Translations under genes and position numbers: made by a program
Notes under the pieces: generated by a model
The model's database searches: none
Told to the model about the DNA's origin: nothing
The model's input: the letters and a program-made list of their open reading frames with translations, nothing else
Shown: positions 1 through 16,990 of the stretch, in pieces
How positions within the stretch are numbered: position 1 is the first letter of the stretch
Layout: every line of letters starts with the position of its first letter
Assembly (NCBI GenBank): GCA_038124905.1
Contig: JAYPCW010000001.1
Coordinates: 1,824-46,970, forward strand
Origin: Candidatus Nanopelagicales bacterium
GTDB taxonomy: Bacteria > Actinomycetota > Actinomycetes > S36-B12 > UBA5976
Reading direction: 5' to 3'
DNA: 45,147 nucleotides

Positions 1-257
1 TGAACGATATTTAAACCAGTCGACTGAGCAATTTTGGCAACCAAATCCGGTCGCCTACCTAACCCATAGGGGGTAGCTTCCAGATAGCCATTAAATCCAG
101 ATTCTCTTAGCTCTCGGAATTCTTTTTGACTCTTTTCGAAATCATCCAGATCTTCATTTGGCAATAACGGGGTGCACTGGAAAGCATGCTCGTGATAGTT
201 AAAATTACCCAACTCTTCAGGTTTAATGTCTCTTAAAATCGTTCTAATTATTTTCAT
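1..257 (-). CDS. phosphotriesterase-related (PTE/Php-type, amidohydrolase-superfamily, lactonase-like) protein, N-terminal part; the 3' end runs off the window
   Basis: Absent from the ORF track because it is open at the window edge. Hand translation of the minus strand starts at an ATG overlapping the upstream stop (TAATG). It gives MKIIRTILRDIKPEELGNFNYHEHAFQC...YGLGRRPDLVAKIAQSTGLNIV. The G-x4-HEH metal-binding start and the TG(L/I)N(I/V)V segment resemble E. coli Php/YhfV-type proteins from memory. Coordinates are +/-1. Confidence 0.6.
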   Translation of the reverse strand, partial: MKIIRTILRDIKPEELGNFNYHEHAFQCTPLLPNEDLDDFEKSQKEFRELRESGFNGYLEATPYGLGRRPDLVAKIAQSTGLNIV

Positions 258-1156
258 TAGCGATATTTTTCAGCTATTTTTGCTAATTCTTCTACTTGTG
301 TGGGGCTAATAGTTAAATCAAATACTTCCGAGATGACTTGAGTCCAGCCGTGAATAAAGTATCTCCAACCGTCGAAAACTTGAAGTTTATGGCTTTCTGC
401 TTGCTCAGTTGCTTGGTGAAAAAATTCTAAACTTCCACGATAATTAAGTTCCCATATAGTGCTCTGTGGAGGAAATTCAACTTCTGCTGGTACTGGTGTT
501 CCAGGAATATCCTTACCCATACCTGTGGCATTAATAATCAAACTTTCAGGGCTCAAAGAATTAAAAGCTTTGACAACTTCAGGCAATGAATAAGTCGATA
601 GATTTAATTTTTCTGTTGGGTACTTATCGCTTATTACTTTATTCAAATGCGCTAATTTTGCTTGATTTACTCCAAAGAATGTCATCTTGCTAGGTTGATC
701 TTTTCGACTGGCTAGATACCAGCCAATTGCCGTGGCTGCCCCACCATCGCCAAAGCACAAAACCTCAGCCCCAGAGGAAAAATGATTTGCAGGTAAAAAT
801 TCCTCAAGACTCAAACCAGCAGTAATGGGATCTTTTGCCGATCCAAACAGTCGCCCGTTTCGCACCTTAACCGCAGATACTTCACCACAGAGCGAAGCAA
901 AGTCATCAAAACTTTCAAATAAATCAAAACCTGAATGGTAGACAGCTAGTTTGTGGGTGGTAACCAATGCACCTTGGCAGTCTTCTTTGTCTCTTAGGGT
1001 GAAGAGCGCCTGCCTTAATTGTTCTTGGCTTGGATTGATTGGTACATCAATTCCAAAAATTTCTGCATCTAGCCCTAAAGCATCGCCCCAGCGAGGAAAC
1101 ACTCTCATTATTGAACTATTAGCCGTACTAACTCCGATAAATCCAATACTTTTCAT
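257..1156 (-). CDS. shikimate/quinate dehydrogenase-like NAD(P) oxidoreductase (AroE-family paralogue)
   Basis: 299-aa ORF. The N-terminal pattern IGFIGVSTANSSI...GALVTTHK and the nucleotide loop FGDGGAATAIGWYL resemble the shikimate dehydrogenase family. ATGA overlap with the upstream gene. Confidence 0.55.
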   Translation of the reverse strand: MKSIGFIGVSTANSSIMRVFPRWGDALGLDAEIFGIDVPINPSQEQLRQALFTLRDKEDCQGALVTTHKLAVYHSGFDLFESFDDFASLCGEVSAVKVRNGRLFGSAKDPITAGLSLEEFLPANHFSSGAEVLCFGDGGAATAIGWYLASRKDQPSKMTFFGVNQAKLAHLNKVISDKYPTEKLNLSTYSLPEVVKAFNSLSPESLIINATGMGKDIPGTPVPAEVEFPPQSTIWELNYRGSLEFFHQATEQAESHKLQVFDGWRYFIHGWTQVISEVFDLTISPTQVEELAKIAEKYR

Positions 1157-2097
1157 AAAACAGGATTCACCGCCGGCTCACCGGATAACACCCGCAAAAT
1201 ATTTGCGACTGCCATCTCGCTCATTTTATCTATTGCTTCATCTGTCTGGGCAGCGATGTGAGCGGTTATTAAAACTTTTTCACGTAAGTTGTCTCGTAGT
1301 AGCGGGCTATTGAGCTCATCTTGCAATGCGTCCGCTGCATAAAAATTTAATTTTCCTAAATCAAGCGCATCCGCCAAAGCTTTTTCGTCAACCAAGTCAG
1401 CTCTAGCTGTATTTATTATTACTTGATTACTCAAGCATGTAGAAAGCCATGGTGCATCAATAATTTTTTGTCCACCCGGCGCCTGCAAAAGTACAAATTT
1501 ACAATTATTTTTTATCTCTTCTAATTCAACTTTTGTAGCCCCGAACTTAGAAATTTCATGCGAATTTATATAGGGGTCACTCACAGAGACTTTGGCACCC
1601 AAAGAAACTAATTTTTCTGTGACCAAGCGTCCAATTTTTCCAAATCCAATTACCCCCACATGACTCCCGCTAATTTGCGAGCCTCTCACTACTTGCCAAT
1701 TGTTTTTTAAAACTTTTTGAAAACTTGAGTGCACATGCCTAGCGCTCGATAAAAGCAATGCCAAGGAGTGTTCGGCAACCGCGAGTGAATTGGCACCAGG
1801 GGTATTGGTTACCGCAATCCCCCGAGCCTTTGCTGAGGCAAGATCTACCGCGTCGATGCCTACACCATAACGAGCAATTATTTTTAAATTCTTTGCCTCA
1901 GAAAGATGCGCTTCGGTTATTTCCGCTACTCCAGCAATCCAAGCTACTGCCACAGCCAAATCTTTTTTTAACTTATCAAGCTCATGTGAAAAATCGCCAA
2001 CTACGACCCGGTATCCAGCTGCAGCCAATTCATTTTTGAAGTCTTTTTTACCTGAAGAAAAGGAACGACTAGTTACCAAAATGGTGAGATTGCTCAA
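1153..2097 (-). CDS. D-isomer-specific 2-hydroxyacid dehydrogenase (phosphoglycerate-dehydrogenase-like)
   Basis: 314 aa. Shows the GVIGFGKIGRLV NAD-binding loop, NTARADLVDE, and a C-terminal ITAHIAAQT catalytic His region. TTG start forms a TTGA overlap with the kinase stop. Confidence 0.8.
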   Translation of the reverse strand: MSNLTILVTSRSFSSGKKDFKNELAAAGYRVVVGDFSHELDKLKKDLAVAVAWIAGVAEITEAHLSEAKNLKIIARYGVGIDAVDLASAKARGIAVTNTPGANSLAVAEHSLALLLSSARHVHSSFQKVLKNNWQVVRGSQISGSHVGVIGFGKIGRLVTEKLVSLGAKVSVSDPYINSHEISKFGATKVELEEIKNNCKFVLLQAPGGQKIIDAPWLSTCLSNQVIINTARADLVDEKALADALDLGKLNFYAADALQDELNSPLLRDNLREKVLITAHIAAQTDEAIDKMSEMAVANILRVLSGEPAVNPVL

Positions 2098-3593
2098 GTT
2101 CTACCCATTCGAGTTGCAAACCAGTCTTCTTGAAATCGATATGAATCTAGAAAAATCTCATGAGCCTCCAAGTAGCGCTCATGACTTTCACGACTTGGCA
2201 AAAATTCACGTTTGATTGAGGATAAGTTTGAAGAATCTTCAAACTTCGCTTTGCCAAGCCCAACTAGAGTCGTTACTGCAGCACCTAAACTATTTGCTTC
2301 TTCGACGATTGAACGTTGTCTAACTGGTATACCCCAGACGTCTGAGAAAATTTGCATCCAAAGCGCGCTCTCGGCACCTCCGCCAATCACGTCCACTGAG
2401 CTAATGCCTCGATTATTTTCGCTAAAGGCTTGAATACAAGTTTTTAGATTAAAAGCAACTCCTTCTAAAACTGCCTTTACTAAGTTTCCTCTTGAATGAT
2501 GACGTTCAATGCCAGCAAAAACTCCGGCAGCTTTTGGGTTCCAATAAGGTGACCGCTCACCCAATATGTGCGGCAAGAAATACAAGCCGTCAAAAGCACC
2601 GGGCAAAGATTCAGCTTCAGCTAGTAACACGTTAAAGCGATCGTGACCACTATTTGGTAAAAGTAGATCTGCAACCCAATGCAAACTAGCTCCACCAGCT
2701 TGCATGGTCGCGGTAGGAACGAATTTACCTTCAACCACGTGGTTAAACGTCATCGTGCGCATCTTTGGATCGTGCAGTGGTTTGTCGGCAGATAATGAGA
2801 TCCAAGAAGATGAGCCCATGCAGGCATAAGCGCCATCCATCTCGTGAATAATTCCCGCACCAGTGGCTGCCATTGGTCCATCTCCACCACCGACTATCAC
2901 TGGGATGCCAGATAACAGGCCCAAATGACTGGCCGCGTCATTAGTTAACTCACCCAAAATTTGCGTTGAGGGAACTACTTCAGGAAACAGCGCCGGATTT
3001 AGCTCAGCCGCTTGCAGAATTCGCTCAGACCAGCTTCCCTTTATTTGATCAAATGCGTTTGTGCTTGATGCATCTGAAAAATCAGTGACCAATTTGCCGG
3101 TTAATTTTGCATTCACAAAATCTTTAGCGTTGCAAATATATTTAGTTTTATTAAAGATTTCTTTTTGATTCTCTCTAACCCACATTGCTTTAGTGAGAGA
3201 ATAAGTGGGATTGAGCTGATGACCGATTTCTTGATAGGCAGATTCCATACCTAATTTTTCGATTAATTGCTGAGTTTGTTTAGTGCTGCGATGATCAGCC
3301 CAAATAACAGCTGTTCGAGTCGGGTCAAAATTTTCGTCCAACAGCACCGCACCCATCATCTGACCTGAAATTCCTAAACCAGATATATCTTTTGGATTTG
3401 CTCCAGATTCGCTTAAGAGTTTTTTTGTGGCGGCACCAACTGCTTGCCACCAATCCTGAGGGTTTTGTTCAGCAACACCGCCTGAGGCAAAATGCACGGG
3501 ATAATCAACAGTGCAGTGTCTAATAATTTTTCCGCTATCATCATGTAAAGAAGCTTTGTTACCGGTTGTGCCTAAGTCATGAGCAATGATCAT
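2094..3593 (-). CDS. FGGY-family carbohydrate kinase (xylulokinase-like)
   Basis: Translation MIIAHDLGTTGNKASL... is a typical FGGY N-terminus, and GGGDGPMAATGAG and GGGAESALWMQIFSDV are also present. I place the start at the ATG at 3593, which makes an ATGA overlap with the cupin gene stop. The track's longer 525-aa version adds 26 non-conserved residues. Confidence 0.85.
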   Translation of the reverse strand: MIIAHDLGTTGNKASLHDDSGKIIRHCTVDYPVHFASGGVAEQNPQDWWQAVGAATKKLLSESGANPKDISGLGISGQMMGAVLLDENFDPTRTAVIWADHRSTKQTQQLIEKLGMESAYQEIGHQLNPTYSLTKAMWVRENQKEIFNKTKYICNAKDFVNAKLTGKLVTDFSDASSTNAFDQIKGSWSERILQAAELNPALFPEVVPSTQILGELTNDAASHLGLLSGIPVIVGGGDGPMAATGAGIIHEMDGAYACMGSSSWISLSADKPLHDPKMRTMTFNHVVEGKFVPTATMQAGGASLHWVADLLLPNSGHDRFNVLLAEAESLPGAFDGLYFLPHILGERSPYWNPKAAGVFAGIERHHSRGNLVKAVLEGVAFNLKTCIQAFSENNRGISSVDVIGGGAESALWMQIFSDVWGIPVRQRSIVEEANSLGAAVTTLVGLGKAKFEDSSNLSSIKREFLPSRESHERYLEAHEIFLDSYRFQEDWFATRMGRT

Positions 3594-4168
3594 GTTAAAT
3601 TGAAATCTTTCAACTTTAATTCTCCTTGCTCTAAATAAGCCCTTAGACCCATCCCGTGCTTTACAACCCATTGATAATCATGCCCTGCACTACCGGGATA
3701 CACAGCTAGAAATTTGTAATCTTTAGTTCCAGTATTTATTGATCGATGCGCCCAACCCGGCGGGATGTAAGCAATTTTTCCAACCTGAACTTCTACCCAA
3801 GAGGTATTGATTCCATCAAACATAATCACTCCACCTTCACCTGCTAATCCAAAATAAATCTCTCCTTGTGGGTCTGGATGTTGGTGCCCCTTTGTCATAA
3901 AAAGTTCTCCGGCGACGCTTCCAGGTTTGATTGTGGTGATTGATTGCGGTAATTCTCGTGACGTCTCAGGAACTACAGAGGAAACTACTCGATAAATTTC
4001 TGGATTTCCATTTGCGATAAGTACTGCAAGGGAGCTTTCATTTTTGAAGCAACCCTGTAAATCGGCAGCTCGCCTCACCAGGGTAGGACCGGTAGGACTC
4101 AATGACCCAGATTCAATATCAAATGAAATCTGTACTGGTTCTAAAGGTGGAGTTCGATATTGACTCAT
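3590..4168 (-). CDS. cupin-type phosphoglucose isomerase family protein (archaeal cPGI-like sugar-phosphate isomerase)
   Basis: 192 aa. TKGHQHPDPQGEIYFGLAGEGGVIMF...AYIPPGWAHRSINTG...FLAVYPGSAGHDY lines up by eye with the Pyrococcus cPGI segments TKGHFH...AEVYVALKGKGGMLL...VYVPPYWAHRTVNIG...FLAIYPADAGHDY (recalled). Confidence 0.8.
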   Translation of the reverse strand: MSQYRTPPLEPVQISFDIESGSLSPTGPTLVRRAADLQGCFKNESSLAVLIANGNPEIYRVVSSVVPETSRELPQSITTIKPGSVAGELFMTKGHQHPDPQGEIYFGLAGEGGVIMFDGINTSWVEVQVGKIAYIPPGWAHRSINTGTKDYKFLAVYPGSAGHDYQWVVKHGMGLRAYLEQGELKLKDFNLT

Positions 4169-4197
4169 GCAGACTTGGTACCTCTGGCTAGTTGTAA

Positions 4198-5004
4198 TTA
4201 CAACTTATCAAGTAACTCAGGCACCACCATGGTAGGCCAACCCGGTCCATTTTGATTTTTATGCACCACAACTTCAAACTGACTCCTGTCGCCACGATGA
4301 ATAGCTACGAATCTCTCGATCGGACGATCCTCAGTATCAAAAGCAACACTACGCAAAACTAACACTGGTGCGCCCACTTTTATTTCGAGCGCGCTAGCCA
4401 TAGCTTCACTGGCAATTCTGGCTTCGAGAGACCTTCGCGTAAGCTGCAACTTAATTCCATGTTTTTCTTCCAGGATCTCGTATACCGATGCCCGAGTTAA
4501 ATTCTCACTTAGGAGTCTTTCACCAACATCCAAACGTAAATAACTCGTCACCCAAGCCCAAGGTCTGTCTTCAGAATACCTAATTCTTTCTAATTTAATC
4601 ACTGGTTCATCAGGCTCAATTTCTAAATCTTTAGCTACTGAAATATTTGCGGGAACTGCCTCCAGCTGTAAAACCTTGCTCACAATTGCCGAGCCTCTGC
4701 TTTGGGCATCTTGAAATAACCCATATAAATTTGGTGCCAAATGTTCGGTAGTTTTGGGACTAGCAACATAAGTTCCTTTTCCCTTAATTCGCTCTAACAC
4801 CCCTTCAAATTCTAATTCACTCAAGGCTTGGCGTACTACGGTGCGAGAAACACTAAAATTTTTACATAATTCAAAATCACCAGGTAATCTGTCACCAGGC
4901 TTAAGACCATTTTCATTTATTTGCCTGAGTATAATTTGTTTTAGTTGGTGATAGAGCGGAAAAGCACCATTCCGTATTAGATTACTACTAGAAGCATTTT
5001 TCAT
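4198..5004 (-). CDS. GntR-family transcriptional regulator, HutC subfamily (winged HTH plus UTRA effector domain)
   Basis: PLYHQLKQIILRQI...LPGDFELCKNFSVSRTVVRQALSELEFEGVLERIKGKGTYV is a GntR HTH. The C-terminal about 150 aa look UTRA-like. I prefer the ATG at 5004, because the track's TTG at 5031 lies inside the hairpin at 5030-5060. Confidence 0.8.
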   Translation of the reverse strand: MKNASSSNLIRNGAFPLYHQLKQIILRQINENGLKPGDRLPGDFELCKNFSVSRTVVRQALSELEFEGVLERIKGKGTYVASPKTTEHLAPNLYGLFQDAQSRGSAIVSKVLQLEAVPANISVAKDLEIEPDEPVIKLERIRYSEDRPWAWVTSYLRLDVGERLLSENLTRASVYEILEEKHGIKLQLTRRSLEARIASEAMASALEIKVGAPVLVLRSVAFDTEDRPIERFVAIHRGDRSQFEVVVHKNQNGPGWPTMVVPELLDKL

Positions 5005-5029
5005 ATTTATCAAATTTGAGTTTATACAC

Positions 5030-5060
5030 AAGGGGTGCAGCCCTTACAGCTGCACCCCTT
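5030..5060 (-). terminator. GC-rich hairpin between the binding-protein gene and the GntR gene (intra-operon terminator or attenuator candidate)
   Basis: AAGGGGTGCAGC / GCTGCACCCCTT forms a perfect 12-bp stem with a 7-nt loop. No clear U-tract on either strand. Confidence 0.5.
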
Positions 5061-5097
5061 GCTGGAATAATTTAACTAACTCGCGTTAGCGTAAAAA

Positions 5098-6123
5098 TTA
5101 TTCGTATAGAACAGCTGCGATCTTTGGATCGTCAATGTTCTCTGCTGTGTAGTAATAGAATCCAGTATCAATAAAGTTTGATGGAACTTTACCATCGCGA
5201 ATATATTCAACTAGAGCTTTTACTGTCTCATATCCAATGCCGATTGGGTTTTGAGTTATAGCACCACTCATCAAACCAGTCTTTACAGCATCAACTTGAG
5301 CTGCACCTGAGTCAAAGCCGATTACTGCTAAGTCTCCAGGTTGCTTTCCTAGTTCTTTAAGAGCATTCACAACGCCGATGGCTGAGCCTTCGTTGGTTGC
5401 ATAGAAGCCCTTTAGATCTGGGTTAGCAGCTAAAATAGCTTTGGCAATATCAGCAGATTTTTGATGATCGCCGTCACCGTATTGGATGCTAACAATCTCA
5501 ATGTCTGGATATTCAGCAGCAACTTGGTTTACGAAACCATCGCGACGCTGTACACCGGTGGCATTGGTTTGGCTGTGGACAACTACACCAACTTTTCCAG
5601 CTGAGCCAATCAACTTAGCCATTTCATCTGCGGCTAGTGCTGCTGCAGCTTCACCGTCGGTACGTGCAATACCAAGTGAAAGAGCTCCTTCACCAAATGA
5701 GGCTTCGTCGCCGGCTGCCGCGTCGAACATGTAGACAGGAATACCCATTTCCTTCGCCTTTTCAAGCAATGGAAGTGGAGCTTCTGGGTCAAGCGATGCA
5801 TAGCCGATTCCGTCGACACCACGATCAATTGCAGCTTGCAATTGCTCAAGTTGCTTATCAACTTGTGATTCGCTTTCTGGGCCTTCGAAGGTAATTTCCA
5901 CACCAAACTCATCTGCTGCATTTTGTGCGCCTAAGCCCACTGCTTGCCAGAACTGATGCTGGAAACCTTTGGAAACCATTGCGATTTGTAGGGTTTCACC
6001 TGATCCGCTGTCGGATGAACCAGATCCACCCGAGCTGCTGGTTCCGCTACTGCACGCACTCAAAGCGAGCATCAAAGCAATACCGGATGCCACGAGAACA
6101 GAAGATTTTCTTCTTAGTCTCAA
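5098..6123 (-). CDS. sugar ABC-transporter substrate-binding lipoprotein (RbsB/PBP1-type)
   Basis: Has periplasmic-binding-protein type I features. I place the start at the TTG at 6123, giving MRLRRKSSVLVASGIALMLALSAC with lipobox LSAC followed by a Ser/Gly linker. A strong SD, GAAGGAGAAGGAG, sits 5 nt upstream. No permease or ATPase gene is adjacent. Confidence 0.8.
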   Translation of the reverse strand: MRLRRKSSVLVASGIALMLALSACSSGTSSSGGSGSSDSGSGETLQIAMVSKGFQHQFWQAVGLGAQNAADEFGVEITFEGPESESQVDKQLEQLQAAIDRGVDGIGYASLDPEAPLPLLEKAKEMGIPVYMFDAAAGDEASFGEGALSLGIARTDGEAAAALAADEMAKLIGSAGKVGVVVHSQTNATGVQRRDGFVNQVAAEYPDIEIVSIQYGDGDHQKSADIAKAILAANPDLKGFYATNEGSAIGVVNALKELGKQPGDLAVIGFDSGAAQVDAVKTGLMSGAITQNPIGIGYETVKALVEYIRDGKVPSNFIDTGFYYYTAENIDDPKIAAVLYE

Positions 6124-6192
6124 CTTAACTCCTTCTCCTTCAGCAACTTGCTGTAATGACAACCCTATAACTCTGCAGGGTAGACATGGCTA

Positions 6193-6202
6193 TAGTTAAC
6201 TA
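6193..6202. promoter_or_regulatory. 10-bp perfect palindrome TAGTTAACTA in the divergent promoter region (candidate GntR/HutC operator)
   Basis: Perfect palindrome with a GT-TA-AC core. It lies between the binding-protein operon and the epimerase operon. Confidence 0.3.
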
Positions 6203-6279
6203 AAATCGTTACCGTCTTGTTAGATTTGTCCGATCCATTGAGACGGATGTTGCGTATGAGCCTGGAAGGTGAGACTTAA

Positions 6280-7149
6280 ATGCCAAATTTACTAGGAGTT
6301 CACGCCCTAGTTTGGGCAGGTGGCTGGAGCGAATCTGAGGTGAGAACTGCCGTAGCTAGCACAAAAAATGCAGGCTACGACCTTATAGAAATTCCTGCGC
6401 TGAGCCCAACTGATATCGACCCAATTTTCACCAAGAAAATCTTGGATGAATACCAAGTTAAAAGCTCATGTTCACTAGGTCTCACTTTCGATGCTGACTT
6501 GAACAATGAAGATGAGAATGTAGTTGGGCGAGGCGAGGCAAGACTGCTTCAGGCCTTAGATCTAGTTAGGAAATTAGAAGGCGAGTATTTAGGAGGGGTG
6601 ATATTTAGTGCTTTAGGTAAATACTTAAATCCTCCCACCGCTAAAGCTCGTGCAAATGTAGTCGCTGCATTAAAAAGACTGGCTAAGCAAGCCAAAAAAG
6701 ATGGCATCACACTCGGACTTGAAGTTGTAAACCGATACGAAAGCAATTTATTGAACACTGGCAGGAGTGCGCTTGACTTGATTAATGAAATAGGTGAATC
6801 TAATGTTGTCGTACATTTAGATACCTACCATATGAACATCGAAGAAATGAATATGTTTGATCCGGTTATCGAAGTCCAGGAAAAACTTGGTTATGTTCAT
6901 ATTGGTGCCAATCATCGAGGTTTCTTAGATCAAAAGGGAATGATTGATTTTGACAACTTTTTTAAAGCGTTAGCACAAGTTAATTACCAAGGAGTAATTA
7001 CATTTGAAAGTTTTTCTTCTGCCATTGTCAGCAAAGATCTTTCCAACACGCTATGCATTTGGCGCAACTTATGGGAAGACAATCAAGCGCTAGCTATTGG
7101 GGCACGAGAATTTATCGAAGAAAAACTGCAAGCTGTAGGAATGAGATGA
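6280..7149 (+). CDS. ketose 3-epimerase (D-tagatose/D-psicose 3-epimerase family, xylose-isomerase-like TIM barrel)
   Basis: 289 aa. LGLEVVNRYESNLLNT, VHLDTYHMNIEE and GYVHIGANHRG match the EVVNRFE / LDTFHMNIEE / HxGExxR metal-ligand segments of characterised DTE/DPE enzymes (recalled). SD is GGAAGGTGAG. Confidence 0.7.
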   Translation: MPNLLGVHALVWAGGWSESEVRTAVASTKNAGYDLIEIPALSPTDIDPIFTKKILDEYQVKSSCSLGLTFDADLNNEDENVVGRGEARLLQALDLVRKLEGEYLGGVIFSALGKYLNPPTAKARANVVAALKRLAKQAKKDGITLGLEVVNRYESNLLNTGRSALDLINEIGESNVVVHLDTYHMNIEEMNMFDPVIEVQEKLGYVHIGANHRGFLDQKGMIDFDNFFKALAQVNYQGVITFESFSSAIVSKDLSNTLCIWRNLWEDNQALAIGAREFIEEKLQAVGMR

Positions 7150-8168
7150 AAGCAGTTGTATTAAATGATTTTAATGATTTAGTGCTAACTAAATTGCCTA
7201 CTCCTAGTCCTGGGCCGGGCGAGGTGCTAATTCAAGTTTTAGCTTGTGGGATTTGTGGAACAGATCGACATATCTACAAGGGTGAATACCCCTCCAAAAA
7301 ACCTGTAGTACTTGGACATGAATTTGGAGGTCGCATCACTTCGCTCGGTAGTGAGGTAAGCGAGTTCAAAATCGGAGACTTAGTATCCGTTGATCCCAAT
7401 ATAGTTTGTGGACGTTGTGATGACTGCCTTGCCAAAAGGACAGCGTTCTGCCCCAAACTGACAGCGCTAGGGGTAAACACGCATGGTGGCTTGGCTGAGT
7501 ATGCCTTAGTTCCAAGAACTCAAATTTACAAAGTGCCAGAAAATTTAAATCCAAATTATTTGGCTTTTATTGAGCCCTTAGCCTGCACTATAAGAGGTTT
7601 TGACCTAGGCAACTTGCAAGGCGGCGAAAAGGTAGCAATTCTTGGCGGTGGCGTTATTGGTCTACTTGCGGTGCAACTAGCAAAGTTGGCCAAAGCGAAA
7701 GAAATTATTTTAATAACTCGGCAGAGTGCCCGCCGTAAAACAGCATTAAAAATTGGTGCAACTCGCGCTATTGATCCCAATCAAGAAGATGTAATCAAAG
7801 TAGTAAAAGGCATGGACGTCAGTTTCGAATGTGCAGGAGCTACGGCAACCTTTAAGCAAGCACAGCAAATAACTCGCCGAGGTGGTTCAATAATCGTTCT
7901 AGGATTAACCGCTCAAGGCGTAGAGGTGCCGATCAGTCCATTTGATCTCGTAATTAACGAACACAAGATTCAGGGCTCGTACCTTAATCCTCACACCCAA
8001 CAGCGGGCAGCCGAATTAGTAGCAAGTGGAAAATTGCAACTCGAGCCTTTAATTTCTAAGGTTGTGCCGCTAGATCAAGTTCCCAACCTGTTAGCTGCTG
8101 ACCCAGGACAGGGCGATATTAAATATATTGTCTCAAGTCAGGCCGGAGCGAAACTAAATCAGGCGTAA
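7146..8168 (+). CDS. zinc-dependent alcohol/polyol dehydrogenase (MDR family, sorbitol/threonine-dehydrogenase-like)
   Basis: MKAVVLNDF..., the GICGTDRHIYKGEY catalytic Zn motif, the CGRCDDCLAKRTAFC structural Zn motif, and the GGGVIGLLAVQLAK Rossmann loop. The start at 7146 makes an ATGA overlap with the epimerase stop. The track's upstream extension is out of character. Confidence 0.85.
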   Translation: MKAVVLNDFNDLVLTKLPTPSPGPGEVLIQVLACGICGTDRHIYKGEYPSKKPVVLGHEFGGRITSLGSEVSEFKIGDLVSVDPNIVCGRCDDCLAKRTAFCPKLTALGVNTHGGLAEYALVPRTQIYKVPENLNPNYLAFIEPLACTIRGFDLGNLQGGEKVAILGGGVIGLLAVQLAKLAKAKEIILITRQSARRKTALKIGATRAIDPNQEDVIKVVKGMDVSFECAGATATFKQAQQITRRGGSIIVLGLTAQGVEVPISPFDLVINEHKIQGSYLNPHTQQRAAELVASGKLQLEPLISKVVPLDQVPNLLAADPGQGDIKYIVSSQAGAKLNQA

Positions 8169-9357
8169 TTTCAGAAAGACTCTTTACCCCTAGTAGTTTC
8201 ATAGAAGTTTCCATTTCTAATTTAAAAATGTCAACCAACTTTTGCACACCTGGCTTTCCCCCGGCCATTAAGCCATACAAATACGCACGACCCAACATCA
8301 CACCAGTTGCGCCAAAACCAATGGCAGCCAAAACGTCGGTAGAACTCATAACGCCACCATCTATATAAACTTCCATTTTTTTACCAACCGCTTTAACCAT
8401 TTCTGGCAAAGTTTCAAGCGGGACCGTTCCTCGATCCATTTGCCGGCCACCATGATTAGAAATCACTATTGCGTCGACACCATATTTGACTAGCTCCTTG
8501 GCGTCATCAACTCGTTGCACACCTTTAACCACTAATGGACCACCCCAAGTGTCTTTTAGCCACTTTATGTCTTTCATCGTGACACTTGGATCAAATATCT
8601 TTTTCGATAATTCAAACAAAGGTGCGTCATAGCCCCTAAAAGTGGCAAACTCTAATGGTGGTGTCGTTAATAAATTACCCCACCACTTTGGCTTAGTCGC
8701 CATATCTAAAAAGGTCTTTGCTTTGATTTTAGGCGGCACGGTTAATCCATTTTTACTGTCTTTTGGTCTTTGCCCGCTAATTGGAGTATCTACAGTGAGA
8801 ATCAATGCCTCAAAACCATCGCGCCGGGCATCTTCAATGAACTTTTTACTTTGTTCTCGATCATTCCATAAATAAAGTTGAAACCAACGGCGAACATCTG
8901 GCACAGCACTGGCTAATTCGCTTGTTGACGTGGTTCCCATTGTGGATAGTGAGTAGACCAAATCATTTTCAAGAGCTACCTCTGCGACAGCAGGCTCCCC
9001 TAAGTAATGCATCATGCGTGAATAGCCAGTTGGGGCAAAAATTATCGGCATGGCCGCTTTTTTACCCAAAATTTTTTGGCTGTAATCAATCTGACTCACG
9101 TTTCTTAAAACTCTTGGTTTGAATTCAACTCGCTTAAATGCATCTTTCGCTCTTTGTAAACTGATTTCTTCTAGCGCCGCACCATCTACGTAGTCAAAAA
9201 CAGATCTGGGCACCCGTTTTTTTGCTACCGCTCTTAAGTCTTCTGCACTAAAACAAGCTTCGAGCTTGCGATCCTTCCTTTCAAACATAGATGAAAAACT
9301 CCAGCCCAACAAAGGCTTAATACTTTTCCAGCGAGGAAACTGTCGCTTGATCACCAT
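8119..9357 (-). CDS. FMN-dependent alpha-hydroxy-acid dehydrogenase/oxidase (L-lactate dehydrogenase LldD-like)
   Basis: 412 aa. FDYVDGAALEEISLQRAKDAF, the SNHGGRQMD catalytic motif and YIDGGVMSSTDVLAAIGFGA are present. Last gene of the minus-strand fuconate operon. Confidence 0.8.
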   Translation of the reverse strand: MVIKRQFPRWKSIKPLLGWSFSSMFERKDRKLEACFSAEDLRAVAKKRVPRSVFDYVDGAALEEISLQRAKDAFKRVEFKPRVLRNVSQIDYSQKILGKKAAMPIIFAPTGYSRMMHYLGEPAVAEVALENDLVYSLSTMGTTSTSELASAVPDVRRWFQLYLWNDREQSKKFIEDARRDGFEALILTVDTPISGQRPKDSKNGLTVPPKIKAKTFLDMATKPKWWGNLLTTPPLEFATFRGYDAPLFELSKKIFDPSVTMKDIKWLKDTWGGPLVVKGVQRVDDAKELVKYGVDAIVISNHGGRQMDRGTVPLETLPEMVKAVGKKMEVYIDGGVMSSTDVLAAIGFGATGVMLGRAYLYGLMAGGKPGVQKLVDIFKLEMETSMKLLGVKSLSEITPDLVSLRPDLRQYI

Positions 9358-9361
9358 TTAT

Positions 9362-10204
9362 TTAGACATCCAATTTGTAAGAGTTTATTGCGGTCTTCGA
9401 CCAGAAATATTCTTTCTCATCTTTGCTCAATTGGCTAGTTAAACTTTCAGCGATATTAATCACCTGTGAATAAGACGCCGCAAGTAGGCAAACTGGCCAA
9501 TCAGAACCGAACATCAACCTTTTAGGTCCAAAAGCATCTAATAACACCTCAACATAAGGCCTAAAGTCATCAAGTGTCCAATTCTTCCAATCAGCTTCGG
9601 TGACCATGCCAGAGATTTTCACTGCAAGATTTTCTTGTTTTGCCAAAGTTTTCATATTGCTGGCCCAAGGCTCCAGCTCTCCTTTGGCAATATACGGCTT
9701 CGAAATATGGTTCAGCACAAAGTAAGTATCTGGACATTCATTAACCGCTCTTATAGCCGATGCTAACTGAGGAGGCAAAGTAAGTAAATCGTAGGTTAAA
9801 TTTTTTACTCCTAAATATTTAAGGTTCTTAATTACCTCTGGGCGTTCAAGCCATTTATTATCAGATTTTTGTTGAACTTGATCCCTAATAGCAACCAGCT
9901 TTTTGCTCCCCGGGTGTGCCAAATATTCAGATAATTGACTGTGTATATCTTGCTCCAAATCTAACCAGCCCACCACGCCTGCGACTTTTGGATTCGTCGC
10001 TGCGATCTCTAAAAATTCAGGTGTTTCTTCAGGCACGGTGACAGTTTGAACTAACACTGTGTAATCGATCCGATTTTGAGCCAATTCCGGCTCGAAGTCC
10101 TTCATTAAAATGGTTTTATTAATCGGATCAAAATCGGGTGAAGTCATCCAATCCTGTGCTCGGACAGAAAGATCCCAAACATGATGGTGAGAGTCAATTC
10201 TCAC
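9362..10204 (-). CDS. amidohydrolase-2 family lactonase (L-fucono-1,5-lactonase-like)
   Basis: 280 aa. MRIDSHHHVWDL... is the characteristic ID(A/S)HxHxW start of amidohydrolase_2 sugar lactonases, and FGSDWPV lies near the C-terminus. Sits in a fuconate pathway context. Confidence 0.7.
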   Translation of the reverse strand: MRIDSHHHVWDLSVRAQDWMTSPDFDPINKTILMKDFEPELAQNRIDYTVLVQTVTVPEETPEFLEIAATNPKVAGVVGWLDLEQDIHSQLSEYLAHPGSKKLVAIRDQVQQKSDNKWLERPEVIKNLKYLGVKNLTYDLLTLPPQLASAIRAVNECPDTYFVLNHISKPYIAKGELEPWASNMKTLAKQENLAVKISGMVTEADWKNWTLDDFRPYVEVLLDAFGPKRLMFGSDWPVCLLAASYSQVINIAESLTSQLSKDEKEYFWSKTAINSYKLDV

Positions 10205-10206
10205 GA

Positions 10207-11109
10207 CTAACCTTTTGCCACAATGTTCTTTAGTTCTTTGCCTTGAGCTAACAGTTCTAACTGACTCTTTACTAACTTTCTAATCCGCGGCTCGAAAGCC
10301 GTTGAGTTACCTCCAACGTGCGGCACGATAAATGCATTTTCTTGCTTCCATAAAGCGTGTTCGCTTGGCAAAGGCTCGGGGTCCGTCACATCGACCGCAG
10401 CGAAGATGCGTTTTTTTGCTAACTCACTTACCAAAGCATCAGTGTCGACAATTACGCCCCGCGCCACATTCACAAGTAGCGCGCCATCTTTCAAGAGTGA
10501 AAGTCTCTTTGCGTTAAATAATTTCACAGATTGGGCGTTAGCTGGCAATATCAAAACCACCACATCAAAGGTAGGCAAAAATTCATCTAACTCAGATATT
10601 TGCTTAGCGCCGTCGCTACCGGAGCGATTAAAGGCTGTTAACTCAACTTCAAAAGGCTCAATCATCTGGGCAAACTTTTTACCGATCGATCCATAGCCAA
10701 CTAGGCCAACTCTTTTACCAGCCAGCGAATGCAAGCGTTTGTGATCCCAGGTAGCACTCTGTTGCATCTTGAAAAAATGCGGAAACCCTCTTAGCGAGGC
10801 GATGGTCAATCCCAATGCCAGTTCCGCAGTTGACATGTCGTGTACACCTCGAGCATTACACAGGGTCAAATTTGGTTTCAAAAACTCAATCGCATCGTCA
10901 TATCCAGCATTAGGCAATTGAATGTACTGCAAATTTGGCATTTCTCGTATTGGCAACAAAGCGGCTCGCCCACCCATGTAAGTAGGCACATAAAAAGTTA
11001 TTTCTTCAATTTTTTTTGAATCTAACGGAGCATTCTTAGGACTCAGCATTTCAAAACCGGGTGGCCCAGTTAAGTCATCCCACTGGGTCCAAACTATGTG
11101 CTTTGACAA
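10207..11109 (-). CDS. D-isomer-specific 2-hydroxyacid dehydrogenase, NAD-binding
   Basis: 300 aa. VGLVGYGSIGKKF, LVNVARGVIVD, DVTDPEPLP and IVPHVGGNS are present. TTG start lies 1 nt after the upstream stop. Confidence 0.75.
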   Translation of the reverse strand: MSKHIVWTQWDDLTGPPGFEMLSPKNAPLDSKKIEEITFYVPTYMGGRAALLPIREMPNLQYIQLPNAGYDDAIEFLKPNLTLCNARGVHDMSTAELALGLTIASLRGFPHFFKMQQSATWDHKRLHSLAGKRVGLVGYGSIGKKFAQMIEPFEVELTAFNRSGSDGAKQISELDEFLPTFDVVVLILPANAQSVKLFNAKRLSLLKDGALLVNVARGVIVDTDALVSELAKKRIFAAVDVTDPEPLPSEHALWKQENAFIVPHVGGNSTAFEPRIRKLVKSQLELLAQGKELKNIVAKG

Positions 11110-11110
11110 T

Positions 11111-11959
11111 TTAGTTAACCTCCTTTACGGTTTTCACAGAATTGCTTAACTCTCCAATTTGACTTGCTTGAATTCTCACCAAATCTCCCTCGTGCAAACT
11201 GATGTCCATCGGTGGGACGATGCCGGTGCCAGTTGAGAAAACCACTCCATTTTCAAACTTGTAGCACCGATATAAATAGTCAACTAAGACTTCAAATGGT
11301 CTTTTTAGTTGTGCAAGCGAGGTGGTTGCCTCCCACACGGCCTTATCTTTACGGAAAATTTGAGCGCTGATTTCTACTTGATTTAAATCAGAAATTTCCC
11401 AAATTGGTGTCACCACCGATAGCAAGCTACAAGAATGTTCATACATTTTGGCTTGGGGTAGGTAAAGTGGATTCTCTCCTTCTATGGTTCGTGAAGTGAC
11501 GTCATTGCAAATGGTCAAGCCTAAAATTTCTTTTTTGGAATTAACCAAGATAGCAATTTCAGGCTCAGGCACGCTCATAGTTGAGTCGTAACGAATACCA
11601 ACCCAATTATTTTCATTTACTACCCGGTTACCGATTGCTTTGAAAAAAATTTCTGGCCGGTCTGCCTCATAAACTCTCGTATAAACGTCTGGGACACCAC
11701 TTTCTTCGGTGCGAGCATCACGCGAACGCAAATAGGTAACCCCTGCTGCCCATACTTCACCATCACTATCGATGGGAGGCAGGAGTTCTACTAATTCAAT
11801 TTCATCGCCTTGAGTGTTTTCGATTAAGTTTTTTGCTTCCGCCAGTGACATTTGCAATAATTGCTTCCAGCAATGAACTGCAATTGGTCGCAAGCCCTTT
11901 TCAGTCTTGATTCCTAAGTGAAATACTCCATTTTTATCCCTGCCACTAATTAAAGACAT
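11111..11959 (-). CDS. fumarylacetoacetate-hydrolase (FAH) family protein, candidate 2,4-diketo-3-deoxy-L-fuconate hydrolase
   Basis: FAH-like C-terminal fold ([11 protein letters not shown]..., [17 protein letters not shown]). The start at ATG 11959 is preceded by GAGAGGAAAA and removes the overlap with the AKR gene. Function is assigned from cluster context. Confidence 0.6.
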
Positions 11960-11973
11960 TTTTTCCTCTCGAC

Positions 11974-12951
11974 TTATCTTTCGACGGGCTGAATTAATCC
12001 TTGAGTTTCTAATGAATCCCAAATGTCTTTAGGTAGGTCAATCGCAAAGTCTTTCAAATTGCTTTTCAATTCCTCACCGGTCCTGGCGCCAGTCAAAATT
12101 GCCTTGACTGCCGGATGCCTTAGCGGAAACTGCAATCCCACTGCGGATACCGGCACTCCAAAAGAGTCAATCGCTTCGTGTAAAGCTTTTGCATGATCAA
12201 TAATTTTTTTGCTAGCCGGCGCATAGTCGTATGTTGCACCGTCATTTGGATTTACCAAAACCCCAGAGTTGAATACTCCTGCAGCTAATACAGAGACGTT
12301 TCGCTCTAAAGCTGCGGGTAATAAGTCTTTGGCTGCCGTTTGCTCAAGCAAGGTGTATCTTCCAGCAATCAAAACAATATCGATATCAGTTTCCCTAACA
12401 AATCTTGTAGCCAAATCTGAAAAATTGATTCCTACGCCAATAGATTTAACTAATCCTTCGCTTCGCATTTTGTCTAGTTCGGGATATGCCTCATCAATTG
12501 CTTGATCCATATGATTCTCTGGGTCATGAATAAACAAAATATCAACGTGATCTAATTTCATTCGCTCTAAACTTTCCTCGAATGAACGTCTTACGCCTTT
12601 TGCAGAATAATCAAAAACCGGCGAGCAAGGTTCTAAATCTCTAAAAATTGTGGGCCCGGTGTATTCACCCTCTACCAAAATTCTTCCGACTTTTGTGGAA
12701 ACGATCGCGCTGGATTGCGCACCAGCTAAATGCAAACCACGCCCTAAGCGTTTTTCTGATTTTGTGTGACCATAAAAGGGCGCAGTATCAAAATAATTAA
12801 CTCCTGCTGAGGTTGCAGTTTTGATTAAGTCGTCTGAGCTAGATTCTTCAACACTTGAAAACATGCCACCCAAAGGTGCCGTGCCCAAACCCACTTTGCT
12901 CACTCTTAAGCCGCCGCGACCAAAGTCGACTAATTCTCGATGATTAGGCAT
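11974..12951 (-). CDS. aldo/keto reductase, L-fucose (D-threo-aldose) 1-dehydrogenase-like
   Basis: 325 aa. [17 protein letters not shown]...[19 protein letters not shown]...IHDPE are typical AKR motifs. Sits in a fuconate pathway context. Confidence 0.7.
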
Positions 12952-12960
12952 GGCGCTAAC

Positions 12961-14706: not shown

Positions 14707-14754
14707 TATCGACCTCCGGAATTAGAAAGACACTCACCAGCGCCGTTTGTTCAT

Positions 14755-14768
14755 CTTATAGGCTTTGG
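14755..14768. promoter_or_regulatory. CTTATAGGCTTTGG motif in the 97-bp divergent promoter region between the AOR-like gene and fucD (operator candidate)
   Basis: Closely resembles CCTATAGGATTTTGG at 16903-16917 and the palindrome core at 16881-16888. Confidence 0.35.
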
Positions 14769-14803
14769 CCGAGTAAGCACCAAGCTTTTTTACGGAGGAC
14801 GCA

Positions 14804-16099: not shown

Positions 16100-16845
16100 T
16101 GGCTGACTTTCAAAATCAAATAGCAATCGTAACTGGTGCTGCAAGTGGAATTGGTTTTTCATGCGTGAAGCAACTAACTGAGCAAGGCGCTCGAGTATTT
16201 GGTTTTGATTTAACTCCTGGTGACTTAGATTCGATTGCCACCTTCGTAGAGTGCGACATCACTAGCCAATCTTCGGTAGATGCGGCTTTTGAAAAAGTCT
16301 CTAGTCAGGTAGATCGTGTTGATATCTTGATAAATAACGCTGGAGTTGGTGCAATTGGTACCGTCGAAGACGCAACTGACGATGACTGGCAGCGAGTATT
16401 TAATGTTTGTGTTTTTGGAACTGCCAGAGTTACTAAAAAGTTTTTACCACTGATTCGAAAATCGCAAAACAAAGCAATTGTTAATACCGGTTCAGTTGCC
16501 GCACCGGTAGGGATTCCTAAGCGTGCGGTCTACTCTTCGGCTAAAGGTGCAATTCAAACTTTAACTCTTGCCATGGCCGCCGATTTTGTTAGTGAGAAAA
16601 TCAGAGTGAATTCAGTTAACCCAGGTACCGCTGACACTCCTTGGGTGCAAAGACTGTTAGCGCAAGCTGATGACCCCAAAAAAGAGCGAGCAGCCTTAGA
16701 GGCGCGCCAGCCAATTGGCCGGTTAGTTTCACCAGATGAAGTTGCTCACGCAATTTTGTACTTAGCTAATCCAAAATCCGCTTCAACTACCGGCACCTTG
16801 CTTTCAGTTGATGGTGGATTAGGAAACCTTTACTTACCCAAGTAA
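16099..16845 (+). CDS. short-chain dehydrogenase/reductase, candidate 2-keto-3-deoxy-L-fuconate 4-dehydrogenase
   Basis: 248 aa. TGAASGIG, NNAG and the YSSAK catalytic motif are present. Its GTG start shares 1 nt with the fucD stop (TAGTG). Confidence 0.75.
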   Translation: MADFQNQIAIVTGAASGIGFSCVKQLTEQGARVFGFDLTPGDLDSIATFVECDITSQSSVDAAFEKVSSQVDRVDILINNAGVGAIGTVEDATDDDWQRVFNVCVFGTARVTKKFLPLIRKSQNKAIVNTGSVAAPVGIPKRAVYSSAKGAIQTLTLAMAADFVSEKIRVNSVNPGTADTPWVQRLLAQADDPKKERAALEARQPIGRLVSPDEVAHAILYLANPKSASTTGTLLSVDGGLGNLYLPK

Positions 16846-16875
16846 AAACCAGTTAAGTTTTGCATTTCACGCAAT

Positions 16876-16893
16876 AATTTCCTATAGGAAATT
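16876..16893. promoter_or_regulatory. 18-bp perfect palindrome AATTTCCTATAGGAAATT (operator candidate upstream of the FadR-type GntR gene)
   Basis: Every position pairs from 16876 to 16893. It lies 31 nt downstream of the SDR stop and about 100 nt upstream of the regulator start. Confidence 0.5.
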
Positions 16894-16896
16894 TCT

Positions 16897-16917
16897 GGTT
16901 TCCCTATAGGATTTTGG
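16897..16917. promoter_or_regulatory. second, imperfect copy of the CCTATAGG operator-like motif (GGTTTCCCTATAGGATTTTGG)
   Basis: Shares TTTCC(C)TATAGGA with the palindrome 4 nt upstream. Confidence 0.4.
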
Positions 16918-16990
16918 AAACGCTCTGCGACTAATTTGTCATTTTTTGTGACCTTTTGTCGTTGCCTTGAACTAATATCGCATAAGCATT

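Follow-up and report, generated by a model that had tools for sequence, protein, structure and literature searches.

Several described bacterial systems share features with the locus considered here. In the Entner–Doudoroff (ED) pathway an isomerase (Pgi), a C1 dehydrogenase (Zwf), a lactonase (Pgl) and the dehydratase Edd precede the cleavage of a 2-keto acid by Eda, the aldolase for KDPG (2-keto-3-deoxy-6-phosphogluconate), and HexR is the regulator in Proteobacteria. The 2-ketogluconate operon of Pseudomonas encodes KguE, KguK, KguT and KguD, of which KguD interconverts 2-keto-6-phosphogluconate and 6-phosphogluconate, feeding the ED pathway. During pyridoxal phosphate (PLP) synthesis in E. 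coli, Epd and PdxB lead from erythrose-4-phosphate via 4-phosphoerythronate to a 2-keto acid. The in vitro activity of bacterial cupin-type phosphoglucose isomerases (PGIs) has been known since 2005. For the phospho-lactonases of the phosphotriesterase (PTE) family, the pathway context has to our knowledge never been worked out. Here we analyse a stretch of 45,147 nucleotides from Candidatus Nanopelagicales bacterium (contig JAYPCW010000001.1), called the window below, whose positions 1–8168 encode an FGGY kinase, a cupin-type PGI homologue (cPGI), a shikimate-dehydrogenase-like protein (SDHL), a PTE-family lactonase and a D-2-hydroxyacid dehydrogenase (2HADH). Our best explanation is that they make up the two thirds nearest the promoter of a ~13-kb locus with control of the HutC type. 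We propose, with a rough probability of 55%, that these five core enzymes form an ED-like phosphorylative, oxidative funnel for sugars.

The locus and its conservation

The genes in the window were checked by open reading frame (ORF) listing, translation and Pfam and NCBIfam profile searches. At the left edge the minus strand carries the 5' end (85 codons) of the PTE-family (cog1735) lactonase gene (<1..257), whose Pfam PTE score of 18 bits against a cut-off of 22.4 is low through truncation. Next to it lie the genes for SDHL, a NAD(P) dehydrogenase of 299 aa (257..1156; no Pfam family at E ≤ 0.01, weak AroE matches in NCBIfam), for 2HADH, a protein of 314 aa resembling phosphoglycerate dehydrogenase (PGDH) (1153..2097; PF02826 and PF00389), for the FGGY carbohydrate kinase of the xylulokinase-like clade (2094..3593; FGGY_N and FGGY_C) and for the cupin-type PGI-family protein (3590..4168; PF06560, 76.1 bits against a cut-off of 20.7). 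On the same strand are genes for a GntR/HutC-family regulator (4198..5004; GntR HTH and UTRA effector domain) and a CUT2-family sugar-binding lipoprotein (5098..6123 or 6162; PF13407, lipobox LSAC). The latter gene most likely starts at TTG 6123, 3' of the Shine–Dalgarno sequence AAGGAGAAGGAG, rather than at 6162. The plus strand carries the genes for a free-ketose 3-epimerase (KE3, 6280..7149; AP_endonuc_2) and a Zn-dependent medium-chain polyol-type dehydrogenase (Zn-ADH, 7146..8168; assigned by profile matches). Adjacent genes overlap at their junctions, by ATGA at cupin/FGGY, TTGA at FGGY/2HADH, ATGA at 2HADH/SDHL and TAATG (1 nt) at SDHL/PTE on the minus strand, and by ATGA between KE3 and Zn-ADH on the plus strand. 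An original prediction, made from the letters of the DNA, had called these families, positions and start/stop overlaps of 1–4 nt, and the ORF, profile and junction checks find all of them as placed.

The operon had been expected to run on beyond the left window edge, and near-identical contigs bear this out. SDHL is encoded on five public contigs, three of which were compared by blastn and show 99.6–99.8% DNA identity to the window. Past the edge follow the complete PTE gene (303 aa on contigs L001–L004) and the genes for an EthD-domain protein, a PfkB ribokinase (365 bits, above the NCBI ribokinase cut-off of 299.65), an antisense ABM-domain protein, an RbsA-like ABC ATPase of the double-ATPase type and an RbsC-like permease. 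The lipoprotein gene had been described as lacking an adjacent permease or ATPase. Both lie ~7 kb downstream of it, and the transporter is complete. In NCBIfam the binding protein comes closest to the D-allose-binding protein, at 123 bits where the cut-off is 335, and the scores of binding protein and transporter are all under the equivalog cut-offs. Farther left, the genes for an aldehyde dehydrogenase, an FAH-family hydrolase and an IlvD protein that scores as L-arabinonate dehydratase look like a separate non-phosphorylative pentonate set.

On contig L001 (GCA_038121065.1) the EthD gene (11855–12193) is coupled 3' of the lactonase gene, and the ABM gene (13116–13517) is placed in antisense direction, with the ribokinase gene on one side and that of the ABC ATPase on the other. 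The EthD and ABM proteins belong to the dimeric alpha/beta-barrel group, which also includes L-rhamnose mutarotase. At 9659–10004 of the same contig, 643 bp corresponding to window positions 1399–2041 are missing; they are present in L002 and L003. The gap reduces the 2HADH gene to an 80-aa remnant: either the assembly is at fault here, or a strain identical in all else carries a natural knock-out of this one core gene.

Homologues of SDHL number 5705 proteins at E ≤ 1e-5, and the family at E ≤ 1e-30 falls into 324 clusters at 50% identity. Scanning one genome per species with SDHL gave 263 relatives, of which the best 80 loci were taken and their ORFs labelled with the window proteins. All 80 are from Actinomycetota (lake metagenome-assembled genomes, Microbacterium, Arthrobacter, Plantactinospora, Streptomyces, Geodermatophilaceae, Ornithinimicrobium and others). 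The following counts are from the 58 loci in which SDHL is flanked by 8 kb or more in either direction, with co-location meaning within 10 kb of SDHL. PTE is present in all 58; cupin (98%), 2HADH (98%) and FGGY (97%) are each present in 56–57. The transporter follows closely, with the permease in 93% and the binding protein and the ATPase in 91% each. KE3 is found in 66% (38/58), GntR in 48%, RbsD/FucU in 41%, the KDPG-type aldolase Eda in 40% (23/58), PfkB in 29%, TAL/FSA in 28%, HAD in 16% and Zn-ADH in 3% (2/58), the last being a lineage-specific accessory gene. The set is kept around distant SDHL homologues (~50% identity) in Ornithinimicrobium, Streptomyces and Geodermatophilus, and the minimal version in Streptomyces consists of cupin, substrate-binding protein (SBP), ATPase, permease, FGGY, SDHL, PTE and HutC. 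The KE3 orthologues, 42–52% identical to that of the window, lie beside the ABC genes and in Microbacteriaceae usually head them.

Accessory genes vary by lineage (EthD/PfkB, RbsD, TAL, GFO, HAD). Among the best 80 loci EthD (8 loci, all from lake lineages) and RbsD (28 loci) are mutually exclusive, and one may speculate that EthD takes the place of RbsD as a mutarotase. A clustering of the unlabelled ORFs over the 80 loci for further partners, a dehydratase among them, returned only LacI-/FCD-type regulators, the result being swamped by high-GC shadow ORFs.

It is very improbable that the genes stand together fortuitously or that their pathway has already been characterised elsewhere. Chance is excluded by the conservation in the 58 loci and across phyla; the original prediction had itself named an unconserved neighbourhood as the mark of a fortuitous juxtaposition, and the neighbourhood is conserved. 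It had also known of no described pathway with this combination. We found none with this gene composition in the open-access full-text literature, searching by enzyme names, Pfam/InterPro/COG identifiers, intermediates and epimerase terms, and this coverage of open-access full text is the point in favour of an earlier description. Price et al. 2022 mention none of the module's families. Furthermore, the genes bear generic names in public records: 'shikimate dehydrogenase', 'phosphoglycerate dehydrogenase' and 'glucose-6-phosphate isomerase'. One sulfoglycolysis paper offered a lead, which was dropped as it concerned DUF4867, another cupin family.

Outside the Actinomycetota, tblastn against plasmid and chromid records reveals SDHL homologues of 40–44% identity in Rhizobiaceae, Marinovum, Lichenicola and Paraburkholderia. 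The gene order in S. meliloti, Marinovum, R. leguminosarum and Lichenicola is cPGI–(Eda)–SDHL–PGDH-like–MBL hydrolase–RpiR, Eda being present in three of the four annotated loci. This block is divergent from SBP–ATPase–permease–FGGY–SDR–SDR, at times with GldA, Zn-ADH or a second FGGY in addition. Between the window and S. meliloti, identity is 44% for SDHL, 35% for 2HADH, 34% for FGGY and 31% for the cupin. Where the PTE gene stands in Actinomycetota, the Proteobacteria have a gene for a metallo-beta-lactamase (MBL)-fold hydrolase, which weakly matches the L-ascorbate-6-phosphate lactonase model. Since two unrelated binuclear-metal hydrolase folds occupy the same position, a simple shared job, lactone hydrolysis, is indicated. 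The proteobacterial regulator is HexR-like (283.6 bits against the HexR cut-off of 296), and HexR is a sensor of KDPG. The binding proteins of the two groups are only 21% identical and non-orthologous. With an orthologous core behind non-orthologous binding proteins, the core would be a common funnel behind differing uptake and feeder steps.

By megablast of plasmid records, the S. meliloti block is found only in CP090106.1 (L090, strain Ak57) and in no other Sinorhizobium plasmid record. CP090106.1 is labelled 'plasmid pSymB' yet measures 3.72 Mb, which is chromosome-sized, and the replicon label is probably wrong. Given this size, we do not call the locus a pSymB locus.

The two dehydrogenases also occur as one protein. 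A representative search found a natural full-length 2HADH::SDHL fusion of 661 aa (P0128), encoded on a metagenomic contig (L095) in the order Zn-ADH-like fragment – cupin – fusion – Eda – KE3-like – FucI-like – MFS. On a Firmicute-like contig (41% G+C) the sugar-related genes are limited to the series (ROK/SDHL) – cupin – PTE – Eda – 2HADH. The apparent ROK::SDHL fusion P0216 was dropped as fusion evidence; its SDHL part is without the first ~80 residues, including the catalytic Lys, and it is probably a deletion or mis-assembly. A distant SDHL homologue on contig L097 has a stand-alone SIS isomerase on one side and a ROK kinase on the other, and upstream there is the C-terminal portion of a 6-phosphogluconate-dehydrogenase (Gnd)-like gene; this is an oxidative-pentose-phosphate-like setting. 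Another distant homologue, P0262, was left unused for its unrelated SIR2/methylase context. Its surroundings (L098, 6631–12938), close to a DNA methylase, hold an RpiB/LacAB isomerase, a GFO oxidoreductase and two proteins with SIR2_2 domains, and look like a defence-island or phage-like region.

Core enzymes and the proposed pathway

SDHL falls outside the shikimate dehydrogenases (SDH) by sequence models and by context, while the fold and the catalytic pair are kept. It scores at most 41 bits against AroE models in NCBIfam, where the cut-offs are at least 200 (235 for the best). In the loci examined its context is never aromatic amino-acid or quinate metabolism and always a cluster of sugar kinase, isomerase and lactonase genes. 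The AlphaFold2 model (pLDDT 93) has the full two-domain SDH fold. With Foldseek it matches AroE, YdiB and 5-ketofructose reductase at TM-scores of 0.64–0.75 and 15–21% identity, and the last of these is an SDH-family enzyme that acts on a sugar. Across 19 homologues there is no variation at Lys69, at Asp109 or in the GxGGA motif (G136-x-G138-G139-A140), and Lys69 and Asp109 correspond to the SDH catalytic pair. Further invariant basic residues, K108, K215, R240 and R265, could bind an anionic group. We infer that SDHL is a sugar-phosphate 1-dehydrogenase (aldose-phosphate dehydrogenase).

The closest PDB entries of 2HADH are PGDHs (1YGY, E 7e-38), and the protein is short and without an ACT domain. 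A function as the PGDH of the serine pathway is ruled out by a long SerA with an ACT domain at 38887–40473 of the window. This canonical D-3-phosphoglycerate dehydrogenase, with intervening and ACT domains, adjoins ilvC, ilvB-like, leuA, leuB and ilvE-like genes in a housekeeping amino-acid biosynthesis block.

The full-length PTE orthologue finds its best PDB match in 3PNZ (E 2.4e-35), ahead of E. coli PHP and of the promiscuous lactonase/phosphotriesterase group. 3PNZ is Lmo2620, which hydrolyses D-lyxono- and L-ribono-1,4-lactone-5-phosphate. The metal ligands of the L001 orthologue, from a contig 99.7–99.8% DNA-identical to the window, all align with those of 3PNZ: HEH (HxH), the bridging Lys, His, His and Asp. 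The distal phosphate residues of 3PNZ are reportedly K242, K244, R275 and Y278; at these positions the orthologue has R, N, R and R, with one of the four identical and a pocket that stays basic. With 79.9 bits the protein lies far under the cut-off of 630 set for NCBIfam NF045706 'phospho-furanose lactonase', which is the sole curated model of this activity.

The cupin is 38% identical to the cPGI of Thermococcus litoralis (1J3P, E 1.8e-36). The His-His-Glu-His metal site is kept (H95, H97, E103 and H141), and both PPGWAHRSIN (PPxxxHxxxN) and YPGSAGHDY (YPxxAGHDY) are present; the YPxxAGHDY segment binds the phosphate in the Pyrococcus enzyme. The signature motifs of cPGIs are said to be TX3PX3GXEX3TXGHXHX6-11EXY and PPX3HX3N. 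From this the cupin deviates twice, with Ala for the first Gly and with a spacer of 5 residues, not 6–11, before EXY. Judged by the dedicated sugar operon context, its real substrate may be an analogue of fructose-6-phosphate/glucose-6-phosphate.

The aldolase that accompanies the core in relatives appears canonical. In the L006 cluster it matches E. coli KDPG aldolase at E 5e-57, scores far better than against KDPGal aldolase, and keeps EVTLRT, KFFPA, PTGG and GGSW.

The simplest scheme that uses every conserved gene once, with four of the five enzymes recruited from other families, would run as follows. The CUT2 ABC system of binding protein, ATPase and permease would import a monosaccharide, ketose or polyol. 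In this lineage Zn-ADH could oxidise a polyol to the ketose, and KE3 could epimerise the free ketose at C3. The FGGY kinase would then give the ketose phosphate, which the cupin would isomerise to the aldose phosphate. SDHL would oxidise C1 to the phospho-lactone, as a Zwf analogue, and the PTE lactonase, or the MBL hydrolase in Proteobacteria, would open it to the phospho-aldonate, as a Pgl analogue. The PGDH-like 2HADH would act at C2 of the phospho-aldonate to give a 2-keto acid, and in many relatives the KDPG aldolase would release pyruvate and glyceraldehyde-3-phosphate. We infer this order of steps and the direction of 2HADH. The order gains indirect support from the closeness of PTE to 3PNZ, the replacement by an MBL hydrolase, the metal and phosphate residues of the cupin and the 2HADH::SDHL fusion.

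The sequence of kinase, isomerase, dehydrogenase, lactonase and 2HADH had already been put forward in the original prediction and is still the most economical. Of the two feeder enzymes included there, KE3 belongs to the conserved system and Zn-ADH stands outside it. The open-ended 'further oxidation' at its end gives way to what looks like an ED analogue ending in pyruvate and glyceraldehyde-3-phosphate, in view of the relatives' KDPG aldolase and HexR-like regulator.

A hexose is favoured as the substrate of the ED-like funnel by the canonical KDPG aldolase, the HexR-like regulator, the cPGI architecture and the ROK and Gnd-like neighbours of the distant SDHL homologue. KDPG is D-erythro at C4 and C5, and RbsD also acts on allose. 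For the actinobacterial versions our best guess, held with low confidence, is thus a hexose that is D-erythro at C4/C5, from the D-psicose/D-allose/allitol group. This guess rests on the configuration of KDPG, the allose/ribose-like binding protein, the presence of RbsD in relatives and the kinship of KE3 to D-allulose 3-epimerase.

KE3 itself belongs to the L-ribulose/D-allulose 3-epimerase subgroup, with the L-ribulose 3-epimerases of Methylomonas and Mesorhizobium and the D-allulose 3-epimerase of Arthrobacter. The PDB matches are 7CJ9/7CJ4 (E 1e-86 to 2e-86), 5ZFS (E 2e-82) and 3VYL (E 1e-66). The motifs LEVVNRYE, HLDTYHM and ITFESF align with characterised members and are taken to hold the Glu/Asp/His/Glu metal and catalytic residues. 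The NCBIfam equivalog for D-psicose 3-epimerase is not reached (156 against a cut-off of 300). For Zn-ADH the best PDB match is 4EJ6 (E 1e-95), an uncharacterised protein of S. meliloti.

The closeness of KE3 to L-ribulose 3-epimerases (7CJ4-9, 3VYL) raises the question of a pentose route. Here an L-pentulose (L-ribulose or L-xylulose, interconverted by KE3) would be phosphorylated at C5 and isomerised to L-ribose-5-phosphate or L-arabinose-5-phosphate; oxidation would give the 1,4-lactone-5-phosphate, followed by hydrolysis by PTE and oxidation at C2. It would suit the xylulokinase-like kinase, the ribokinase, rbs-like transporter genes and RbsD that accompany the module, and the lactonase, the nearest relative of which is the pentonolactone-5-phosphate lactonase Lmo2620. 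PTE-family enzymes of Mycoplasma, which are related, hydrolyse D-xylono- and L-arabino-1,4-lactone-5-phosphate (PMC10971088). Nevertheless we regard the pentose route as unlikely. The core of the relatives comes with a canonical KDPG aldolase, which takes a C6 substrate, and with a HexR-like regulator, the cupin retains the architecture of a hexose-6-phosphate cPGI, and the conserved genes offer no plausible fate for a 2-keto-5-phosphopentonate.

The kinase invites a different division of the locus. FGGY just exceeds the TIGR01312 cut-off for XylB (390.5 against 380.25) and stays well below that of NF011601 (246 against 912), and its best PDB match is E. coli XylB (2ITM, E 5.5e-64). The genes could then be a mosaic that shares one transporter, with ribose uptake and ribokinase, a conversion of polyol to ketose and, by 3-epimerisation, to D-xylulose for a plain xylulokinase, and a separate cupin/SDHL/2HADH/PTE set acting on an unrelated metabolite. 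The PfkB score above the ribokinase cut-off, the presence of Zn-ADH and KE3 in only part of the loci and the change of accessory genes between lineages all fit such a mosaic. We consider it improbable. FGGY is coupled by ATGA and TTGA between cupin and 2HADH, goes with SDHL in 97% of the genomes and does so in Proteobacteria too; over 90% of loci have the transporter alongside the core, and in Streptomyces the smallest version is made up of cupin, transporter, FGGY, SDHL, PTE and regulator only.

The cupin raises a third question. Bacterial cupin PGIs, including that of E. meliloti, are reportedly specific for glucose-6-phosphate/fructose-6-phosphate. The module could then be a non-canonical copy of the route from fructose-6-phosphate via glucose-6-phosphate and 6-phosphogluconolactone to 6-phosphogluconate, serving polyols or rare ketoses made into fructose, with a KguD-like 2HADH acting on 2-keto-6-phosphogluconate and housekeeping Edd or Gnd coming next. 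KE3, a homologue of 5ZFS, would convert D-allulose to D-fructose, Eda and a HexR-like regulator belong to the world of the ED regulon, and a Gnd-like gene lies beside a distant SDHL homologue. The odds of such a copy are nonetheless poor in our view. It would duplicate Pgi, Zwf and Pgl where these are present, yet the block is conserved with dedicated transporters; it gives no necessary role to 2HADH, which co-occurs with SDHL in 98% of loci and is found fused to it; and Edd is never co-located, whereas Eda often is.

Several points weigh against the ED-like funnel itself. We know of no enzyme activity for the SDHL family, and the characterised enzymes closest to it have shikimate, quinate and 5-ketofructose as their substrates rather than aldose phosphates. 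FGGY, being above the NCBI xylulokinase cut-off, could be a plain xylulokinase. If the cupin PGI of E. meliloti has the specificity reported above, the module would duplicate central enzymes. The non-orthologous binding proteins speak against a single common substrate at the level of uptake. Eda is absent from the window and its extension, where EthD and ribokinase are found instead. Furthermore, a normal hexose-6-phosphate passing through these steps would yield a 2-keto-6-phosphohexonate, not a 2-keto-3-deoxy acid, and no dehydratase of the Edd/IlvD or enolase type is conserved with the module in the labelled actinobacterial or annotated proteobacterial loci. As a result, a linear route leading from a normal hexose to KDPG lacks the step that would create the 3-deoxy group.

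One bolder form of the ED-like funnel would address this gap. In a dehydratase-free ED variant, KDPG would arise without Edd, from 3-deoxy substrates or by elimination on a metal enzyme, and SDHL would represent an unrecognised class of sugar-phosphate 1-dehydrogenases. We put this forward tentatively and rate it well short of even odds. As one option, the substrates may be 3-deoxy-hexoses or -hexuloses and 2HADH may oxidise 3-deoxy-6-phosphogluconate to KDPG, against which the co-transcribed 3-epimerase implies a C3 hydroxyl. As a second, the 3-hydroxyl could be eliminated at the phospho-lactone or enediol stage by one of the metal enzymes, which would leave 2HADH without a role. Outside this variant, a third option for the missing step is a KguD-like reduction after C3 inversion of the 2-keto acid, giving 6-phosphogluconate for housekeeping Edd or Gnd; the pattern of Eda without co-located Edd speaks against this as well. 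Finally, the aldolase might accept a 3-hydroxy substrate and release hydroxypyruvate and glyceraldehyde-3-phosphate, which we disfavour as every canonical KDPG-aldolase residue is kept.

Candidate operators and neighbouring genes

Two candidate HutC-type operators, features without strand, are found in the locus. O2 (4190..4205) is the perfect 16-nt palindrome AGTTGTAATTACAACT, which is unique in the window, spans the stop codon of gntR and precedes the ATG of the cupin gene by 20 nt. O1 (6150..6163), reading GCTGTAATGACAAC on the plus strand, lies 27 nt upstream of the probable TTG start at 6123, in the region shared with the divergent epimerase operon. The consensus of both is GyTGTAATnACAAC, and in 9.5 kb TGT-N4-ACA occurs at these two places only. 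In the orthologous locus L010, with 76% DNA identity, O2 is identical though the adjacent spacer has diverged, and O1 is identical at 13 of 14 positions. Operators of the HutC family are typically GT-N-AC palindromes, and we propose O1 and O2 as putative operators of the GntR/HutC regulator on the strength of this pattern.

In addition, an inverted repeat on the minus strand (5029..5061) forms a hairpin with a perfect 13-bp stem and a 7-nt loop, directly 3' of the binding-protein gene and 5' of gntR. It has no clear T-tract and is not called a terminator; it is probably mRNA-stabilising or attenuating. Such hairpins usually raise the mRNA of the binding protein relative to that of the downstream genes.

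A second sugar cluster, of the L-fucose/L-rhamnose non-phosphorylative type, occupies window positions 8119–17683. It encodes an FMN-dependent L-lactate-dehydrogenase-like protein (8119–9357), an Amidohydro_2 lactonase (9362–10204), a 2HADH of its own (10207–11109), an FAH protein (11111–12022) and an aldo-keto reductase (11974–12951). An aldehyde:ferredoxin oxidoreductase (12961–14706; AFOR_N/AFOR_C) stands in the middle and is an unexpected member of such a cluster in an actinobacterium. It is followed by an MR_MLE dehydratase (14804–16099), an SDR protein (16099–16845) and a GntR/FCD regulator (16991–17683). Farther on, the protein encoded at 17665–19113 is 482 aa long and has a GH25 lysozyme domain at its C-terminus, the long N-terminal part being without a Pfam match. 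A class II (B12-dependent) ribonucleotide reductase with a TSCPD domain is encoded at 22743–26087 and adjoins NrdR.

Comparison with known systems

The locus represents a widespread cross-phylum catabolic module built almost wholly of non-canonical families (263 species genomes; 324 SDHL clusters), whose generic public gene names are probably misleading in thousands of genomes. The module offers a physiological context for bacterial cupin PGIs, for PTE-family phospho-lactonases and for ketose 3-epimerases that make D-allulose. Were the dehydratase-free ED variant true, bacterial cupin PGIs and the 'industrial' ketose 3-epimerases would gain a long-missing physiological role. A canonical KDPG aldolase without a dehydratase points to missing chemistry or to natural substrates of a class so far unrecognised. 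The locus has its nearest relatives in metagenome-assembled genomes from lakes and the lineage of the window is a freshwater actinobacterium, and the pathway may bear on which dissolved sugars abundant freshwater actinobacteria use.

None of the described systems, namely the ED pathway, the PTE lactonases, the als and rbs operons, the kgu operon and Epd–PdxB, has the module's composition. The kgu operon resembles the module in an AP_endonuc_2 'epimerase', a sugar-acid kinase and an enzyme of the D-2-hydroxyacid dehydrogenase family. A cupin, an SDH-like enzyme and a lactonase are absent from it, the kinase is of the PfkB and not the FGGY type, and an acid substrate enters by an MFS carrier. 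The Epd–PdxB pair shares the conversion of an aldose phosphate to a phospho-aldonate and the subsequent C2 oxidation by a 2HADH-family enzyme. It is biosynthetic, however, handles C4 compounds without a lactone intermediate and uses a dehydrogenase of the GAPDH family.

With the als (AlsBAC, AlsK, RpiB/AlsI, AlsE) and rbs operons of E. coli the module shares a CUT2 transporter, an allose/ribose-like binding protein, ribokinase, RbsD in relatives and a step between aldose-6-phosphate and ketose-6-phosphate. The window locus is without AlsE and AlsK and has no ROK allokinase or ribulose-phosphate-epimerase-family gene, and its binding protein stays far below the AlsB model (123 against 335 bits). 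While the als route epimerises the sugar phosphate to fructose-6-phosphate, the module would epimerise the free ketose by KE3 and oxidise the sugar phosphate.

The known PTE phospho-sugar lactonases (Lmo2620/Bh0225, 3PNZ; Mycoplasma MS53_0025/MAG_6390, NF045706) have the same binuclear-metal ligands and a basic distal pocket, and the proteobacterial replacement hydrolase has the MBL fold also found in UlaG of the Ula L-ascorbate route. The window PTE differs from them in its low NF045706 score and in two out of four residues of the phosphate pocket. The phospho-lactone of Firmicutes and Mycoplasma derives from uptake by a PTS, with PTS and Ula genes as neighbours; the neighbours in the window are a kinase, an isomerase and two dehydrogenases.

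The ED pathway is compared last. The module has a cupin for the SIS-type Pgi, SDHL for Zwf and PTE or MBL for Pgl; Edd is missing, with 2HADH in its place. Furthermore, dedicated transporters, a kinase and a free-ketose 3-epimerase go with the module, and the window locus is without Eda. What the two have in common is the succession of isomerase, C1 dehydrogenase and lactonase, followed by cleavage of a 2-keto acid by a KDPG aldolase, with canonical Eda in 40% of the related loci and a HexR-like regulator in the proteobacterial versions.

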